Source: an uncultured Algibacter sp. (GTDB lineage Bacteria; Bacteroidota; Bacteroidia; Flavobacteriales; Flavobacteriaceae). From it: a DNA stretch of 64,000 bases. The position numbers and the translations under genes are program-made. The notes beneath the pieces are model-generated. The model searched no databases. It had not been told where the DNA came from and was given only the letters and a program-made list of their open reading frames with translations. The stretch spans positions 167,179 through 231,178 of the forward strand of contig NZ_CANKXG010000002.1 in the NCBI RefSeq assembly GCF_947487575.1, written 5' to 3'. Below, piece by piece: positions 14,527 through 59,514 of this stretch; position 1 is the stretch's first letter; each line of letters starts with the position of its first letter.

Positions 14527-14584
14527 GGATTATCTGCTAGCTCGTGTTTTTAAAATGTAAGTTGGTTTGTTTTTGGGAAGGTTC

Positions 14585-14716
14585 GTTTAACGTGTTTGTA
14601 TATGGTTTGTTGCGTGATTTAAGCACCTAAATTAGCAAATACAAACCGAATAGAAAATCCGCGAGGATTTTCGTAAGTAGGCTAGAACTAGCAATAAATT
14701 ATATACGGTGTTGGCA
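14585..14716 (-). mobile_element. attC-like recombination site
   Basis: Minus strand: TGCCAAC-ACCGT-ATAT...TTGC...GCAA...ATATAC-AAACAC-GTTAAAC imperfect palindrome, internal GAAAATCC/GGATTTTC stem, directly after the ORF stop. Confidence 0.75.
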
Positions 14717-15723
14717 ATAGTAGTTATTCTAACTTCTTTTTTTCCTCTTCTTCTCTTTCTTCTCTAATTTTTATCTTCATTGGATTTATTACTCTTTCAA
14801 TAAAAACTTCATTATAAATCGGCTCATAATCATAAATTACAATTCTTCGATTTGTGTCAATAAGATTAGATAATAATTTTGAAGCTAAATCCGCAACTGT
14901 TCCTGGTATTTTCCCAAAAGTCACATCGACTATTTTAGGTGTAATAGATAATGTTGTAAGAATACTTTTTTTAATATTAATTAATCCGTTATGTTTTCTG
15001 TAAAGGTTAATACTATTCTGCTGAATGTTTGACAAAGCAGTATTTTTATTAACTTCTTCTTTATCTAATTCTGAATGAGCGGTTTTATAATCTAAAAAGG
15101 GCTTTTCTTTGAAGACTTTTTCAAAACGTTTAAAATCTTCTTTACTCAAATAATGTTTTGTATTCGGTAAATCAATAGTGTCTTGACAAATTGAATTTAT
15201 TAAATATTTAATTGGATGGAAAAGTTCTAGAGGTAGGACTTCTTTTGATTTTTCTAAATCTTGAGTTATTGTACTAACTTTTCTAAATAATGATGTTCCA
15301 GTATTTGAAGCTATCATAATATCTTGAAGAAGCGTTTTAATACTCCATACTTCCTGATATTTTTCGTCTCTATGGTAATCTTCAGGAAGATAATATTGAA
15401 ATATATCTTCTATCGATTTTAGAGCGTTTTCAACTTTACTTTCCGAAATATTAGTTGCTTTTTCTTTTAAGAAATTATAGAGTCTTTTTTCGTGTTTTTC
15501 AGATACAAAATTATTGTAATCTTTCATTGAACTCGTAGCGAAAGAGTCTACGCCACATTGCATTAGATAATCAAATGTTACTGCATAAGTATTGATTTCT
15601 TCGATTTTCAGAGATTCAATAAATACGTCTTCATTAGATATCTGTTCAACAACTGACATTTGACCTAATAAATATGGACTTACATATAATTTTCTGCTAC
15701 TCATTTTCTTCTATTATTGCCAA
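14591..15723 (-). mobile_element. Integron-type gene cassette (1133 bp), solitary
   Basis: Starts TTGGCAAT, single ORF, ends ATTGCCAAC + attC; start and end boxes are complementary as in cassettes. Confidence 0.7.
14724..15704 (-). CDS. Orphan hypothetical protein (cassette gene)
   Basis: 326-aa ORF filling the cassette; no signal peptide, no family recognised. Confidence 0.75.
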   Translation of the reverse strand: MSSRKLYVSPYLLGQMSVVEQISNEDVFIESLKIEEINTYAVTFDYLMQCGVDSFATSSMKDYNNFVSEKHEKRLYNFLKEKATNISESKVENALKSIEDIFQYYLPEDYHRDEKYQEVWSIKTLLQDIMIASNTGTSLFRKVSTITQDLEKSKEVLPLELFHPIKYLINSICQDTIDLPNTKHYLSKEDFKRFEKVFKEKPFLDYKTAHSELDKEEVNKNTALSNIQQNSINLYRKHNGLINIKKSILTTLSITPKIVDVTFGKIPGTVADLASKLLSNLIDTNRRIVIYDYEPIYNEVFIERVINPMKIKIREEREEEEKKKLE

Positions 15724-15772
15724 TACAAAGATAAAGTTCCGTTTCAATGAACTTTATCGATTGTTAAACGAA
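15718..15772 (-). mobile_element. Upstream att-like site (TTCGTTTAAC, 10-bp hairpin, A|TT junction)
   Basis: GATAAAGTTC (15730-15739) / GAACTTTATC (15749-15758) perfect inverted repeat; GTTAAACGAA at 15763-15772 mirrors TTCGTTTAAC at 14582-14591. Confidence 0.55.
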
Positions 15773-24777: not shown

Positions 24778-24869
24778 TTTGGGCGTTACCACAAGGGTCG
24801 TGCTTTCCGTTCATAGTTTTGCCTCGATGCGCGCCTCGGCAAAAGCTAACCACTGCAATCACTAACGCG
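24778..24869. repeat. Flavo-1-like repeat, copy C
   Basis: TTTGGGCGTTACCACAAGGGTCG...CTGCAATCACTAACGCG. Confidence 0.7.
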
Positions 24870-24974
24870 GGTTAGCAACTTCAATTAAGCATTATTTATA
24901 ATTTCAAAAAAAAAAGCCTTAGCAAAAATTTATGCTAAGGCTTTAATCTATATTCTAAAAAATGTCTTTTTAAA

Positions 24975-25757: not shown

Positions 25758-25829
25758 TAGCCCGTAGGGGAATCGAACCCCTCTTACATGGATGAAAACC
25801 ATGCGTCCTAGCCGATAGACGAACGGGCC
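25758..25829 (-). tRNA. tRNA-Glu (anticodon TTC), CCA not encoded
   Basis: GGCCCGT/ACGGGCT acceptor stem, CATGG-TTTTCAT-CCATG anticodon arm, GGTTCGATTCC T-loop; -7 box TATTTTTG at 25915-25922. Confidence 0.95.
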
Positions 25830-39458: not shown

Positions 39459-40691
39459 ATGAATTCAACTACTCTATTTTACATCATCATCGCCATTATT
39501 GTTATTAATTTTATAGTTGATAAAGTACTTGACGCGTTAAATGCAAAACATTTTAATGACACACTACCTGCAGAATTACAAGATGTTTATGATGATGCTG
39601 AATATAAAAAATCGCAAAACTATAAGGCTACAAATTATAAATTTGGGCTACTAACCTCAACGTTTTCACTTCTTTTAACTTTAGGGTTTTTATGGTTTGA
39701 TGGTTTTGAGTTTGTAGATAACATAGCTCGAAATTATAGTGAAAACCCAATTATTTTAGCACTCATTTTCTTTGGAATTATTATGATTGGTAGTGATATT
39801 TTAACCACACCATTTTCCTACTACAGCACCTTTGTTATTGAAGAAAAATTTGGGTTTAATAAAACCACAGTAAAAACTTTCTTTTTAGATAAAATTAAAG
39901 GTTGGTTAATGATGGCTATTGTTGGCGGTGGTATTCTGGCGTTGATTATTTGGTTTTATCAAGCTACAGGGAAACACTTTTGGTTATATGCTTGGGCTCT
40001 AGTGGCTATTTTTACGTTGTTTATGAATATGTTTTATTCCAAGCTTATTGTGCCGCTTTTTAATAAACAAACACCTTTAGAAGAGGGCACCTTGCGCGAT
40101 AAAATTTCGACATACGCAGAAACGGTTGGATTTAAATTAGATAAGATTTTTGTTATTGATGGCTCTAAACGAAGCACCAAAGCCAATGCCTATTTTTCTG
40201 GGTTTGGTAGTGAAAAACGCGTAACGCTTTATGACACTCTAATTAACGATTTAGAAGATGAAGAGATTGTTGCTGTTCTGGCACACGAAGTTGGACATTA
40301 CAAGAAAAAACACATTATTTTTAATTTGTTTGCTTCTATTTTATTGACGGGTTTGACGCTTTATATTTTATCGTTGTTTATTTCGAATCCGATGTTATCT
40401 CAGGCTTTGGGTGTTGAAACTCCTAGTTTTCATATTGGGCTAATTGCTTTTGGGCTACTCTACTCGCCTATTTCTGAAATTACTGGGTTGATTATGAATG
40501 TATTTTCTAGGAAGTTTGAATACCAAGCGGATGATTATGCTAAAAACACGTATAAGAGCGAACCACTTATTACATCACTAAAAAAACTTTCTAAAAATAG
40601 TTTAAGTAATTTAACGCCACATCCTGCTTATGTATTTATGCATTATTCGCATCCTACACTTTTGGAACGGATTGGGAATTTGAGGAAATAA
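39459..40691 (+). CDS. M48 family Zn metalloprotease (Ste24-like)
   Basis: DGSKRSTKANAYF, AVLAHEVGH, EYQAD, YSHPTL. Confidence 0.93.
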   Translation: MNSTTLFYIIIAIIVINFIVDKVLDALNAKHFNDTLPAELQDVYDDAEYKKSQNYKATNYKFGLLTSTFSLLLTLGFLWFDGFEFVDNIARNYSENPIILALIFFGIIMIGSDILTTPFSYYSTFVIEEKFGFNKTTVKTFFLDKIKGWLMMAIVGGGILALIIWFYQATGKHFWLYAWALVAIFTLFMNMFYSKLIVPLFNKQTPLEEGTLRDKISTYAETVGFKLDKIFVIDGSKRSTKANAYFSGFGSEKRVTLYDTLINDLEDEEIVAVLAHEVGHYKKKHIIFNLFASILLTGLTLYILSLFISNPMLSQALGVETPSFHIGLIAFGLLYSPISEITGLIMNVFSRKFEYQADDYAKNTYKSEPLITSLKKLSKNSLSNLTPHPAYVFMHYSHPTLLERIGNLRK

Positions 40692-41009
40692 GATCATTGC
40701 GAGGCACGATATAATCTCAGAAAATTTTATATCAACAAGTTGTAAAATGATTTTGATTTACTTTATTTGTTTAAAAGATTTCGGCTTGCTTCATTTAACG
40801 TTGAGGTTAAAGTATCTTCTACTGAACTTATTTTAGTATTAAAAGGACACAAATCTACGGGCCATTGCTTGCAATTACAGCTTCGAACAACACAATTTAT
40901 TACAAGTAATTTCTTTTCTCATTTTTGAATCATAACTACATATCTAATAATATTTAGTATCTTAACTTAATCATTGAAATTTTCAAATCCAATGCAAATC
41001 GCAAAATAT

Positions 41010-41897
41010 ATGAAGAGAGTACTCCTTTTAATTCTAATACTATCTTGTCTATCAATGGGAACAAAAGCTGAAAAAGCACTCCCCATCTTAGGAATAGCCC
41101 ATGTGGCGTTTCAAGTATCAAGTTTAGAGCAATCGCGTGCATTCTATACGGCTTTTTATGGATTTGAATTTGCATTTGCTGCGTATGAAGATCAAGAGGC
41201 TTGGTATTTAAAAATAAACGACGACCAGTTTGTGAAGTTAGTCTCAAAACCCGAGGGGACAGATGACAACCGGTTAGTTGAAATCGCATTTCAAGTTTCA
41301 GATATCGAGACTACTATTGCTATGCTCAAAGACAGAGGGCTCAACCCAACGCCTGTAGAAAAAAATTCCGATGGTACCTTAGCGAGTGTTCTAGTAGATC
41401 CAGACGGACATAACCTTAAGTTTGTTGAATACACATCTAATTCCAAGCAAACACTAGCTAAAGGCAAGCATTTAGGGTCTAGGCGAGTTTCCGATCGTTT
41501 GCTGCATGTAGGCATCACTATTACTGATGAAAAGGCGGCCAACACATTGTATCGAGATGCTTTAGGTTTTAAAGAAATTTGGCGCGGATCGCGTAAAGAT
41601 GGTGGTCCAGATGCTTGGGTGAATATGCAGTTACCGGGAGATAGCGGTGACTACGTTGAGTACATTCTTATAAACGATATAAAACTGAGTAGAAGGCAAA
41701 TGGGCACAATGCATCATATGTGCCTTTTAACTGATGATATTCAAAAAGCGCATCGCGATATGTTATTTAATGCCTTACCTGATCTTGAACGTTACGAACC
41801 TTTGGTTGCCCGTAACAACCGCTGGGTGTGCAATGTGCACGATCTCGATGGTACGCGTTGTGAATTAATGGAATCAAAAGAAGCTGTAACTAAATGA
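41010..41897 (+). CDS. Exported two-domain VOC/glyoxalase-family protein
   Basis: Signal peptide from Met at 41010; HVAFQV...FY...GF, DPDG..L.FVE, HVGI, HMCLL, DLDGTR.ELME. Confidence 0.8.
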   Translation: MKRVLLLILILSCLSMGTKAEKALPILGIAHVAFQVSSLEQSRAFYTAFYGFEFAFAAYEDQEAWYLKINDDQFVKLVSKPEGTDDNRLVEIAFQVSDIETTIAMLKDRGLNPTPVEKNSDGTLASVLVDPDGHNLKFVEYTSNSKQTLAKGKHLGSRRVSDRLLHVGITITDEKAANTLYRDALGFKEIWRGSRKDGGPDAWVNMQLPGDSGDYVEYILINDIKLSRRQMGTMHHMCLLTDDIQKAHRDMLFNALPDLERYEPLVARNNRWVCNVHDLDGTRCELMESKEAVTK

Positions 41898-43186
41898 TAA
41901 ATAAGATAATACCACTTCGTTTCTCTCTGCTGAAAATTCTATTTTTAGTGATGAGTCCATTTGTTCTCTCGCAAGCTGGTTTTGCACAAGACGAGTCAGC
42001 CACGGTTTTAGCTGTGAAAGAGCATCCTCATTTCTTTGGTGCAAGACGCGGAGCCTTACCAATTGTGAAACAAGACATTGCGCGAGGTGACACCTCACTT
42101 ATGCCAGCCTATAACGCTCTACTTATCACAGCCAATAAAGCCTTAGCGACTGAACCTCCAACGGTAACTGATAAAAAACGGCATCCTGTTAGCGGAAATC
42201 TGAATGACTATTACACTCAGGCTCCTTACCTCTGGCCCGATCCTTCAAAGCCAGACGGTTTACCATACCTACCAAAGGACGGTATCATCAATCCGGAATC
42301 TCGAAACCCCGATTTTGCGGACTATTCACGCGGTCAAGAAATTGGCCACTTAGTCGAATCGCTTGCCCTCGCATATTACCTCACGGGTAAAGAATCGTAC
42401 GCTGCACATGCAGCTCGATGCCTTCGTGTTTGGTTTATCGATTCTGCTACGCGGATGAACCCACACCTTAAGTATGCACAAGCTGTACCTGGTAGAAACC
42501 AAGGACGTTATATTGGAATGATTGAAGCAGGTGGCGTAGTACAAGCAGTGGATGCTGCTGGTCTTTTAGATGGATCTAAACATTGGAGCAAAAACGACCG
42601 AGCAGCACTAGATATTTGGATAACGAACTTTCTGGATTGGTTTATAAATAGCGAGTATGGTAAAGAAGAAATTCAGATGCGACAGAACCATGGCACTATG
42701 TTCGATGTAAGAGTCGTGCGCTTAGCGCTAGCTTTGGGTAAATACGAACTAGCACGCGAAAGGCTAGAATTGGTAAAAGAGAACCGTATTGCTCGCCAAA
42801 TAGAACCTGATGGTGCCCAACCCATGGAGCTGCGACGCACCAAGTCTTTTAACTACTCCGAAATGAATTTAACGGGGCTTACTGAACTAGCGACACTTGG
42901 AGAGTGGGTTGGAGTAAATTTGTGGTCCTACGAGACAGCAGATGGCCGGAGCATAAGGCGAGCGCTGGAGTTCCTTAGACCTTATGTTGAAGAAGTACCC
43001 GAAGGTTCTCCGCCTAGGGTTTGGCACTACAAACAGGTTGTTCCGTTTCTGCCAGAAATTCTCGCTCCAGCATTTCGTATGGCTAGCATTGGATATCAAG
43101 ATGAGGCATACGAAGCTATTGCTTCTCAGTTCTCTGATTTCAAAGCATCAAGCTTTCAGTTAACACATCCGAAAGGCTCGTTTTAA
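41894..43186 (+). CDS. Alginate-lyase family protein (PF05426-like)
   Basis: Signal peptide; DYYTQAPYLWP, DG..NPE, MNPHL.YAQ..PG, NHGT, I.PDG.QP.EL.RT.SF.YS; ATGA overlap with the VOC gene. Confidence 0.85.
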   Translation: MINKIIPLRFSLLKILFLVMSPFVLSQAGFAQDESATVLAVKEHPHFFGARRGALPIVKQDIARGDTSLMPAYNALLITANKALATEPPTVTDKKRHPVSGNLNDYYTQAPYLWPDPSKPDGLPYLPKDGIINPESRNPDFADYSRGQEIGHLVESLALAYYLTGKESYAAHAARCLRVWFIDSATRMNPHLKYAQAVPGRNQGRYIGMIEAGGVVQAVDAAGLLDGSKHWSKNDRAALDIWITNFLDWFINSEYGKEEIQMRQNHGTMFDVRVVRLALALGKYELARERLELVKENRIARQIEPDGAQPMELRRTKSFNYSEMNLTGLTELATLGEWVGVNLWSYETADGRSIRRALEFLRPYVEEVPEGSPPRVWHYKQVVPFLPEILAPAFRMASIGYQDEAYEAIASQFSDFKASSFQLTHPKGSF

Positions 43187-43396
43187 GGAATTTAGTAGCT
43201 CATTCTGCTTATGTATTTATGCATTATTCGCATCCTACACTTTTGGAACGGATTAGGAATCTGAGGAAATAACGTTTTTTTAAGGCACACCCAGTTCCGA
43301 GTACTTTTCGGGAAAGCAATCTCAAGAATTATCTCCTGCAAAGGCGCTAAATCGTAAAGCTAATACTTGATTTTGTAAAAATTTTCATCTACCTTC

Positions 43397-43446
43397 GTTT
43401 AACGTCGGATATAAAACATTAAAACGTTGTCATATCCGCATAAGTT
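43397..43446 (+). mobile_element. Short attC-like site with overlapping promoter-like TTG-N20-TACCTTCG (43367-43397)
   Basis: GTTTAAC-GTCGG-ATAT...ATAT-CCGCATAA-GTT; same AAC-N5-ATAT / ATAT-N8-GTT spacing as the site at 14585-14716. Confidence 0.55.
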
Positions 43447-43566
43447 GGAGTGAATTCCTGCGTCATTCACTCCAACGTCCCGCGAATAAGATTTGGAGCG
43501 ACTGCCAAAAGGCACTCACACCAACAACGAATAAAATTCATTGAAACAAATCTTATTCGCGGGACG
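43445..43566 (+). mobile_element. Gene-less cassette-like unit (122 bp)
   Basis: TTGGAG...CTCCAAC complementary boxes (12-bp hairpin 43444-43476), then 22-bp perfect inverted repeat (43474-43495/43547-43568) ending G|TTAAACGAA. Confidence 0.5.
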
Positions 43567-43652
43567 TTAAACGAAACTTCAAAATTACACAAAAAAGCAT
43601 TAAACAGATTAGCACAGTCGTACCTCCTTGGCAATGACGTTGGCAGATACTT

Positions 43653-43801
43653 GCGTTAGGGATTGCAGCGGCATCCTTTTTTTAAAACACCCAAAAATTT
43701 TATTTAGAATTAGGTTTAGGCAGATTGCCACGTCGAAAACTCCTCGCAATGACGTAAAAAAAGATATAGCGTAAAGCCCGACCCTTGTGGTAACGCCCAA
43801 A
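43653..43801. repeat. Flavo-1-like repeat, copy D (inverted), with nested REP at 43722-43754
   Basis: GCGTTAGGGATTGCAGCGGCATCC...AAAGCCCGACCCTTGTGGTAACGCCCAAA. Confidence 0.75.
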
Positions 43802-43866
43802 TAATTATAAGAAACCAACTAATTTTAAAAAGATTCCCTCCTTCGAGGGAATGACGATTATTTATC

Positions 43867-43874
43867 TATCTTTG
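43867..43874 (+). promoter_or_regulatory. -7 promoter box (TATCTTTG) for the DEAD-box helicase gene, implying an approximately 120-nt 5' UTR
   Basis: Exact TAnnTTTG match. Confidence 0.6.
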
Positions 43875-43999
43875 CGCCTTGAAACTCAAAATGAGTTTAC
43901 TCCTCAGGGTGAGGATGTGTTACTGGAAGTTTAAGTTTAGTATGTCGATGCGCTTCTTTATGTAACACCACATAACAATATCGCATACATTAAACAATA

Positions 44000-59028: not shown

Positions 59029-59111
59029 TTTAATGAATAATTACTCGAGAATCGTATGGATTATCATACGCAAACTTCTATCCCGAAAGTTTAACTTATT
59101 TGTTTTGAAAA

Positions 59112-59292
59112 TGGCAGGTCTCCTGACTTGCGTCTTCATGTTGGTCTTCCCAAAGATTGCTCTTCAGTGACATTGAAGTTGAACATGAAGCTTTGTAGCT
59201 CACAGTTGCGGGAACAGTTCTGGAATTGATTAAAAATTCTCACCAGATTCCCTTTTAATCCGTTCAATTAAAATTGAACAAGAACCAAAATT
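59112..59292 (-). ncRNA. Cobalamin riboswitch
   Basis: Minus strand AAAAGGGAATCTGGTGAGAA..CCAGAACTGTTCCCGCAACTGT..GTCACTG..GGGAAG..AGTCAGGAGACCTGCC; -7 box TACTTTTG at 59298-59305. Confidence 0.92.
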
Positions 59293-59514
59293 CGCTGCAA
59301 AAGTAGATGTTTTTAGTATAAGTAGATAAACAAACTTTACTTTTTCTTATTCAATTTATAAACAAGATAAATAAAGCCAATAAGAAAATGAGCTATTATA
59401 ACTCCACCTACTATATATATTGTTAAATTTGAACCGTCTCGCATAGGTTTTATGTTTATTTACAAAATTAAAAACCTAAAAGGTTTTAATTTGCTACAAA
59501 TGTTACATCATTAT

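Follow-up and report, generated by a model that had tools for sequence, protein, structure and literature searches.

A gene-less 122-bp cassette in one of many dispersed docking sites of a probable integron-like system in Algibacter

We suggest that a short intergenic element in the genome of an uncultured Algibacter sp. is one of some 30-37 dispersed docking sites, or sockets, of an integron-like gene-capture system, and that it is occupied by a cassette consisting of little more than its own attC-like recombination site. The element lies at positions 43367-43575 of the stretch analysed here (the window: 64,000 nucleotides of contig NZ_CANKXG010000002.1, assembly GCF_947487575.1, positions 167,179 to 231,178 of the forward strand), and its host genome (G000; genus Algibacter) comprises 3.52 Mb at 32% GC. 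We judge this interpretation, with a tyrosine recombinase encoded on contig C6 as the likely enzyme, to be a probable one. Integrons are the textbook gene-capture machines of Proteobacteria; an integron-type interpretation is supported here because the inserted units obey a cassette grammar and a recombinase with an adjoining array is encoded elsewhere in the genome. Taken together, the genome comparisons indicate that an integron-like cassette system is, or recently was, active in marine Flavobacteriaceae. An earlier reading of the window, made from its letters without database searches (the sequence-only reading), had proposed an empty or RNA-only cassette at this site, for which attC-only cassette appears to be the better description.

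That reading had named in advance, as its test, an allele lacking exactly positions 43445-43566, and such an allele exists. In Algibacter aquimarinus JCM 18287 (G010), where both flanks are 99% identical to the window, the locus reads ...CATATCCGCATAA|GTTAAACGAA and exactly 122 bp are absent. The empty junction is CATAA|GTTAAACGAA, with a 3-nt GTT as the only ambiguity, as expected for a G|TT crossover; owing to this ambiguity, the bounds of the cassette can equally be given as 43444-43565 or 43445-43566. The accompanying proposal, that one landing site serves for different cargo, is borne out by a second relative, G008, where the same insertion point is occupied by a 1.28-kb cassette for a 364-aa protein bearing a type IX secretion system (T9SS) sorting domain. 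This insert reads CATAA G|TTATAT..., followed by the open reading frame (ORF), ATATAAC, a hairpin of ~120 bp and AAC G|TTAAACGAA. In two further relatives the locus consists of a decayed socket with another gene (G011) or has no socket (G004).

Comparable allele pairs occur at other sockets of the host genome. At C7:198200 the host socket is filled by a 116-aa cassette (G|TTGTAGC ... GCTACAAC ... G|TTAAACGAA) and that of G011 is empty (A|TTAAACGAA), and at C9:198517 the host is empty where G008 has a 1.65-kb cassette (A|TTGTATGCC ... GGCATACAAC ... G|TTAAACGAA), in which TTGTATGCC is complementary to GGCATACAA. Further sockets hold other cargo, or none, in G004, G008, G010 and G011, with different cargo specifically in G004 and G010. 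Because exact empty and occupied alleles are found at three sockets, and varied cargo elsewhere, we regard the sockets as orthologous and stable and their contents as turning over. As read from the assemblies, these alleles show insertion and loss that are specific in site and orientation, taking place at G|TT (or A|TT) in the interval that separates the socket hairpin from the right outer box.

The comparison with A. aquimarinus also bears on timing. From ~39459 to 43942, a segment spanning an alginate lyase gene (41894-43186) and the docking site, the window is 98-99% identical to G010:C4:72255-76618, against 76-87% for the flanks and a background of 76-82%; this is indicative of a recent exchange, horizontal or homologous, of ~4.5 kb. 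Since 99% identity is limited to this segment, the insertion or loss of the 122 bp would postdate the exchange. We also observed that, at window position 43939/43940, both G010 and G008 have an extra ~160 bp (L021 1816-1980; L022 2463-2627), probably another small repeat insertion.

The layout of the element, its right-hand neighbour and its companion site in the window is as follows.

43367-43397, plus strand: promoter-like box of the docking site, read from the sequence as TTG (-33) at 43367-43369, a 20-nt spacer and TACCTTCG (-7) at 43390-43397
43394-43403, plus strand: left outer box TTCGTTTAAC, which contains an R''-like GTTTAAC and pairs with 43566-43575
43404-43439, plus strand: docking hairpin, GTCGGATATAAAAC / loop CATTAAAACG / GTTGTCATATCCGC, with stem covariation over 23 copies
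43444-43565, plus strand: 122-bp gene-less cassette, composed of G|TTGGAG, the 19-nt TGAATTCCTGCGTCATTCA and its own attC-like site; exactly missing in G010
43470-43476, plus strand: R''-like box CTCCAAC of the cassette, exactly complementary to the cassette start GTTGGAG (43444-43450)
43477-43565, plus strand: long cassette hairpin, with arms at 43477-43495 and 43547-43565 and a 51-nt loop at 43496-43546
43566-43575, plus strand: right outer box GTTAAACGAA, the R' box of the docking site, pushed rightward by the insertion
43576-43647, plus strand: right-hand flank of the docking site, a copy of CCTCTCCAAAAACAAAaCAACTTTCGATTTAAAA that has diverged, with a small extra repeat CCTCCTTGGCAATGACG
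43648-43787, plus strand: Flavo-1 repeat/RNA motif (RF01705), in the same orientation after the docking site (Rfam score 48.3 bits, gathering score 42)
14582-15772, minus strand: companion docking site holding a cassette with a 326-aa orphan gene (ORF 14724-15704, minus strand)

On direct reading, every element that had been listed for 43367-43575 on the plus strand is present where it was placed. The promoter-like box overlaps the left outer box (43367-43397 and 43394-43403), and ATAA separates the docking hairpin from GTTGGAG (43444-43450). Within the cassette, a 12-bp hairpin with arms at 43444-43455 and 43465-43476 terminates in CTCCAAC, and there is a perfect 22-nt inverted repeat at 43474-43495/43547-43568. 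The payload is non-coding, as had been claimed: 122 bp is too short for a gene, and the two overlapping ORFs (69 and 55 aa) extend into the flanks. The outer 10-mers are indeed common to this locus and to the one at 14.6-15.8 kb, TTCGTTTAAC occurring at 14582 (plus), 15763 (minus), 43394 (plus) and 43566 (minus); these four exact occurrences, two inverted pairs, compare with 0.30 expected, and none of 100 shuffles contained four or more. An AAC-N5-ATAT...ATAT-N8-GTT spacing that the sequence-only reading took to be the same at both loci holds only as a mirror-image resemblance to the 14.6-kb site, and nothing rests on it. At the companion site, the left junction A|TTGGCAA is complementary to TTGCCAAC, located at -126 from the right box, and the 326-aa ORF has no Pfam match.

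The genome-wide search for pairs of outer boxes that had been proposed as a check, carried out with nhmmer on the socket ends, returned a large family: ~37 promoter-side ends (A ends), each reading cTTGACTTTGTAAAAAATTTCAaCTAcC|TTCGTTTAAC and then the hairpin, 26 of them paired with a B end, ...GTTAAACGAA|CCTCTCCAAAAACAAAaCAACTTTCGATTTAAAA. The promoter-like box cTTGACTTTGTAAAAAATTTCAaCTAcCTTCG has ~29-37 conserved copies genome-wide, and its conservation begins sharply at CTTGAC. The Bacteroidetes promoter consensus is TTG at -33 and TAnnTTTG at -7; to judge from its motifs, the conserved A-end box fits a promoter of this type, and we treat it as a putative promoter. The distance from A to B ranges from 47 bp to 4 kb in the 26 paired units. 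Four of these sockets are empty, the two boxes closing a palindrome of ~57 bp, and the occupied ones contain 1-4 ORFs, the main ones co-directional with the promoter-like box. The cargo is unrelated from unit to unit, with lipoproteins, membrane proteins, a methylase/endonuclease pair and orphans. We considered a paralogous gene family with conserved untranslated regions and ruled it out, the cargo proteins showing no cross-matches save weak domain similarity. One docking site, at C12:21261-23780, holds a 364-aa DNA methyltransferase-like ORF and a 298-aa reverse ORF; it is the sole unit with a large ORF opposing the promoter direction, and its two genes are probably a restriction-modification pair.

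The family also bears on another view of the element. The outer repeat is longer than the 10-mers, forming a perfect 13-nt inverted repeat (43394-43406/43563-43575) that brackets 156 bp of intergenic DNA beside a promoter-like box, and Bacteroidetes are rich in invertons; the repeats might hence be taken to flank an invertible, phase-variable promoter segment. Yet the promoter box lies outside the repeats, the same repeats bracket from 47 bp to 4 kb of unrelated cargo, and relatives differ by exact insertion or absence and not by inversion. On this last ground we reject an inverton, which we regard as highly improbable.

The socket hairpin appears in 23 copies in which the stem covaries around the constant loop CATTAAAACG. 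Pairing reaches 81%, against 70% in shuffles, with compensatory changes in six of twelve pairs; the covariation score of 0.284 (0.096 in shuffles) was equalled by none of 500 shuffles, and slid controls scored far lower. The outer boxes co-vary as well, at four loci (C8:65205, C2:82495, C6:8349 and C12:65765), the pairs being TTTACC/GGTAAA twice, GCTAAC/GTTAGC once and, in one case, a compensated deletion. At C8:65205-65407 the usual hairpin is missing and the 122-bp unit sits directly between the compensated outer boxes TTCGTTTACC and GGTAAACGAA, an arrangement which suggests that recombination at the left box can remove or exchange the socket hairpin itself.

Beyond the right end of the sockets, the 5' motif of Flavo-1, GCGTTAGGGATTG, is present behind 12 of 26 right ends, co-oriented with them and at a constant 20-27 nt past the conserved flank, where chance would give ~0.004 per site (the genome has ~211 such motifs); upstream of promoter-side ends it was found at 1 of 29. 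Flavo-1 may be a part of the docking module or a preferred neighbour of it. Ordinary annotations in the window include a second Flavo-1 (24792-24877, minus strand), a tRNA (25758-25829, minus strand) and a cobalamin riboswitch (59096-59304, minus strand; 99.8 bits).

The 122-bp unit is the most abundant cassette of the genome, which contains 11 copies at 97.6-100% identity. Three are inside the array on C6, and a fourth, truncated by the end of the short contig C22, comes after an array-type site; at least five occupy sockets (the window, C8:30336, C8:65244, C6:8426 and C12:65689), another closes the four-gene socket unit at C2:102507 as its last cassette, and one more is truncated by a contig end (C11). 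The left boundary is x|GTTGGAG in all nine copies with a readable left junction, each at the G|TT box of a hairpin site, the right boundary is GGGAC|GTTx or GGGAC|GTx in all ten with a readable right junction, and the 11 copies share one orientation relative to promoter or array. Two arm variants are present (CCCGCG/CGCGGG and CCCCGCG/CGCGGGG), in which an extra C on one arm is compensated by a G on the other. In 30 relatives no high-identity match to the unit was seen among the matches listed, an exact 36-mer of it was not found in 185,579 species representatives, and two patterns of the unit found nothing in JGI metagenomes. High copy number, near-identity, lack of cargo and restriction to one genome together argue for recent self-propagation of a minimal cassette, and we think the unit is most likely a selfish, minimal, attC-only cassette, putatively free of any other function.

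This copy family, with the exact empty allele in G010, contradicts the notion that the element is a product of chance or a repetitive extragenic palindromic (REP)-like repeat without mobility of its own. The intergenic surroundings are repeat-rich, with Flavo-1 and GCAATGACG-type elements, but the 10-mer statistics, the exact 122-bp allele and the cassette grammar all run counter to it, and we give it next to no credence. The sequence-only reading had held that a match to a known non-coding RNA or REP family would undo its proposal; in a search of the whole window, no Rfam family matches 43367-43575 at the gathering threshold, the Flavo-1 match being confined to the neighbouring 43648-43787, and at E <= 10 over 43300-43660 the best sub-threshold matches are miRNA/sRNA noise, far below gathering (E >= 0.047).

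The grammar just mentioned consists in a correspondence between the two ends of a cassette. The first 7 nt past the crossover and a box at the start of the unit's own 3' hairpin are exact reverse complements of each other in 13 of 19 socket units, as against 38 of 342 mismatched pairings. The crossover lies 46-53 nt from the left box, the complementary box is usually ~125 nt before the right box, and the 7-mers are specific to each cassette (TTAGCAG, TTCTATG, TTAGGTG, TTGTAGC, TTACAAA, TTATGCA and others). Complementarity of this kind between the first bases and the cassette's own 3' box reads as the grammar of a circularisable integron cassette. The 122-bp unit follows it, G|TTGGAG pairing with CTCCAAC, so that, in sequence terms, it can be described as R', 19 nt, R'' and a long perfect hairpin: a putative attC-like site with next to no cargo. 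Circularised as a single strand, it would take the shape of a dumbbell whose stem is perfect over ~34 bp. Judged by box complementarity, the features of an attC-type site are all found: 3' palindromes, a G|TT crossover and an R'' complementary to the cassette start. Folding adds an energetic hint, in that the strand complementary to the coding strand folds better at 17 of 17 array sites (by a mean of -3.0 kcal/mol) and in 16 of 23 socket hairpins; this modelled bias would agree with the bottom-strand substrate of integrons.

The same grammar speaks against a transposon. A miniature inverted-repeat transposable element (MITE), or a palindrome-associated element of IS200/IS605 type, mobilised by a transposase that leaves a 3-bp GTT duplication and unrelated to the tyrosine recombinase, would account for a GTT that is single where the allele is empty and flanks the insert on each side where it is occupied, and for a unit that is short, hairpin-rich and multi-copy, with near-identical copies. 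But the unit has no terminal inverted repeats of its own (GTTGGAG... against ...GCGGGAC), and the 13-nt inverted repeat is part of the docking site and remains in the empty allele. An internal box of the unit pairs with its first 7-8 nt, an arrangement also seen in the gene cassettes of the system; nine of nine readable left junctions are at the G|TT box of a hairpin, in one orientation; and gene cassettes of 0.6-2.4 kb use identical junctions. We therefore reject a transposon of either type for its junction grammar and its site and orientation specificity, and consider it very unlikely.

A functional RNA deserves more weight, although we still find it unlikely. The 122-bp unit could be an RNA-only cassette, specifying a ~190-nt small RNA with structure, or else serving in cis as leader or insulator to the DEAD-box helicase gene that lies downstream, and it would have spread by selection and not by selfishness; this would be compatible with its status as a cassette. 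In its favour, the unit stands right after the conserved promoter box in at least five sockets, in constant orientation; ORF-less cassettes are recognised in integrons (PMC8618304); and the fold is very stable, both strands of 43367-43575 being far more stable than shuffles (z ~ -11; -53.9 kcal/mol for the bottom strand against -48.6 for the top). Conversely, at least three copies are inside the array, where no socket promoter module was found, the element has no Rfam match, and the hairpin is not followed by a U-tract. With no homologues in the searched genomes there is no conservation or covariation to cite beyond the one compensated indel, and most of the 122 bp is already needed to form the recombination hairpin.

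The likely candidate for the enzyme is a 393-aa, Xer/IntI-like tyrosine recombinase encoded at G000:C6:249200-250381, directly upstream of a cassette array and on the same strand. The first array cassette begins G|TTGTGCG, 32 nt past the stop codon of the recombinase gene, and gene and cassettes run in one direction; no Pc promoter was identified. The array extends for more than 36 kb, to the contig end, as small, co-oriented, unrelated ORFs between palindromes of ~125-135 bp with the form nnnnAAC-GTATAnnnnTTGC ... GCAAnnnnTATAC-G|TTnnnn, and the B-end model of the sockets also matched ~16 same-strand sites on C6, between 252.8 and 286.7 kb. Array cassettes 1-4 all obey the R'/R'' rule. The first site of the array (the attI equivalent, GATTACTTTAGTAATC...CTAG|TT) has no likeness to the socket hairpin.

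Full-length homologues of the recombinase, at 44-62% identity, were found in ~25 of 100 Flavobacteriaceae genera sampled, often at contig ends, and in the complete genome G115 the recombinase gene is followed by an array of the same kind. In several draft assemblies of other genera (G100, G108, G053, G074, G080, G123 and G091) we noted that the homologue gene lies 134-226 nt, mostly 157-162 nt, from the contig end; a repeat downstream of the recombinase gene, the first array site, breaking the assemblies would fit this fixed distance. An N-terminal extension of ~100 aa (residues 1-100, C6:249200-249500) has no Pfam match and is kept in full-length homologues across Flavobacteriaceae genera; it may read the conserved hairpin loop or the hairpin geometry.

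We propose the following mechanism for Algibacter and related marine Flavobacteriaceae. A socket would consist of a Bacteroidetes-type promoter, a small hairpin site between TTCGTTTAAC and GTTAAACGAA, and a conserved right flank. Circular cassettes would enter at G|TT or A|TT by site-specific recombination, always in the orientation read by the promoter, with the C6 Xer-like recombinase acting on folded hairpins, presumably those of the bottom strand. After insertion, the socket would retain its R''-stem-loop-stem and acquire the TTnnnnn of the cassette, and the cassette hairpin would acquire the TTAAACGAA of the socket. The socket promoter would then read into the cassette, the main ORFs of which run in that direction, typically from ~100 nt downstream. 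The 122-bp cassette would recently have multiplied to 11 copies across the storage array and the sockets.

Several observations weigh against this account. We infer both the link between the recombinase and the sites and the activity of the promoter from sequence. The best NCBIfam model for the recombinase, "integron integrase" (TIGR02249), scores 212.8 bits, below its 265-bit cut-off, and is matched in two stretches (model positions 2-177 and 241-314), and the XerA model scores nearly as high, at 205 bits. Residues 9-182 and 247-318 of VchIntIA (2A3V) can be aligned with the recombinase; between them, 21 residues take the place of 64, which include the additional domain specific to IntI (the alpha-I2 region). 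The C6 recombinase lacks this domain, and its best solved relative is XerA (PDB 4A8E). By sequence, the enzyme is not a canonical IntI, and the genome holds two other Xer-like recombinases. No extrahelical bases of the kind typical of attC were identified in the hairpins, which are near-perfect, and the GTT at both ends of the insert also resembles a 3-bp target-site duplication. Since no gene-bearing cassette common to sockets and array was found within G000, the 122-bp unit is the sole witness to traffic between the two; and its copies, near-identical and not found elsewhere in the genomes and metagenomes searched, offer no measure of selection on the 51-nt loop or, with it, of an RNA function.

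A wider version of the proposal, a "distributed integron" of Algibacter and related Flavobacteriaceae in which one Xer-like recombinase without the IntI domain serves both a silent array and ~30-37 promoter sockets across the chromosome, each socket expressing the cassette that it happens to contain, with the 122-bp unit as a parasitic, attC-only minicircle and minimal natural substrate, strikes us as plausible, if a little short of probable. If it were true, hairpin geometry and G|TT boxes would be sufficient for mobility. The alleles described here provide base-exact natural evidence for a cassette system in marine Flavobacteriaceae, members of the Bacteroidota, a group regarded as nearly integron-free, probably with a recombinase that does without the domain thought necessary for recognition of folded attC sites. 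The rAID-1 arrays of gut Bacteroidales, which are poorly understood, may work likewise. They would also add a feature undescribed for integrons, many orthologous docking hairpins that bear promoters, so that captured genes could be expressed at many places and not only beside one attI. The 122-bp cassette, in turn, would be the smallest conceivable substrate, a self-moving recombination hairpin, and could be put to direct use in assays of excision and insertion and in studies of how an Xer-like enzyme reads single-stranded hairpins.

It remains to set the system beside those already known. In the literature, of which our coverage is partial and not a proof of absence, we came across no account of scattered docking sites or of such arrays in flavobacteria. 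Like sedentary chromosomal integrons with the "inverted integrase" layout, the system has a tyrosine recombinase beside a long array of small, co-oriented, mostly single-ORF cassettes; it shares with them imperfect palindromes of ~125-135 bp at the cassette ends with R''/L''/L'/R' logic, the G|TT crossover, cassette starts complementary to their own R'', a better-folding non-coding strand and the existence of ORF-less cassettes. Unlike integrons, it has near-perfect hairpins without identified extrahelical bases and a recombinase that has no IntI-specific insert and scores below the integron-integrase cut-off, and where integrons have one attI and one Pc, it has ~30-37 extra, scattered docking sites, each with its own putative promoter. 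IntegronFinder 2.0 reported almost no integrons in Bacteroidota.

SALINs are solitary cassettes at attG, that is, at double-stranded, unstructured and loosely defined genomic GWT sites (Loot et al., bioRxiv 10.1101/2022.09.11.507474). The sockets resemble them in holding single cassettes far from the integrase after GTT-type insertion, and SALINs can be expressed from a nearby promoter and re-excised. The cassette of the window is likewise solitary, but its target is a conserved, covarying module of hairpin and promoter, present ~37 times, orthologous between species and reused by different cassettes. A second relative in kind, from the same phylum, is the rAID-1 of Bacteroidales, with an XerD-like recombinase 5' of co-oriented short genes and intergenic repeats "reminiscent of integrons" (Ross et al. 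2019, bioRxiv 10.1101/471110), defined by a recombinase of >44% identity to BF9343_RS08045, at least two co-oriented low-GC genes and repetitive intergenic motifs. The C6 locus matches this architecture, and we liken the two by architecture, not by recombinase homology; accounts of rAID-1 describe no mechanism, cassette grammar, hairpin substrate, dispersed sockets or gene-less cassettes, and the cargo here is not visibly made up of immunity genes.

The 122-bp unit itself has two counterparts. It is like the non-coding cassettes of integrons in that cassette junctions bound an ORF-free unit (PMC8618304), but it is reduced to a recombination site and 19 nt, and its 11 copies point to self-propagation over a cargo role. 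It is like MITEs and palindrome-associated transposable elements in being short, structured, multi-copy and non-coding, and differs from MITEs in having no terminal inverted repeats of its own and in the strict site and orientation specificity, at hairpin G|TT boxes, that it shares with the gene cassettes of the same genome.

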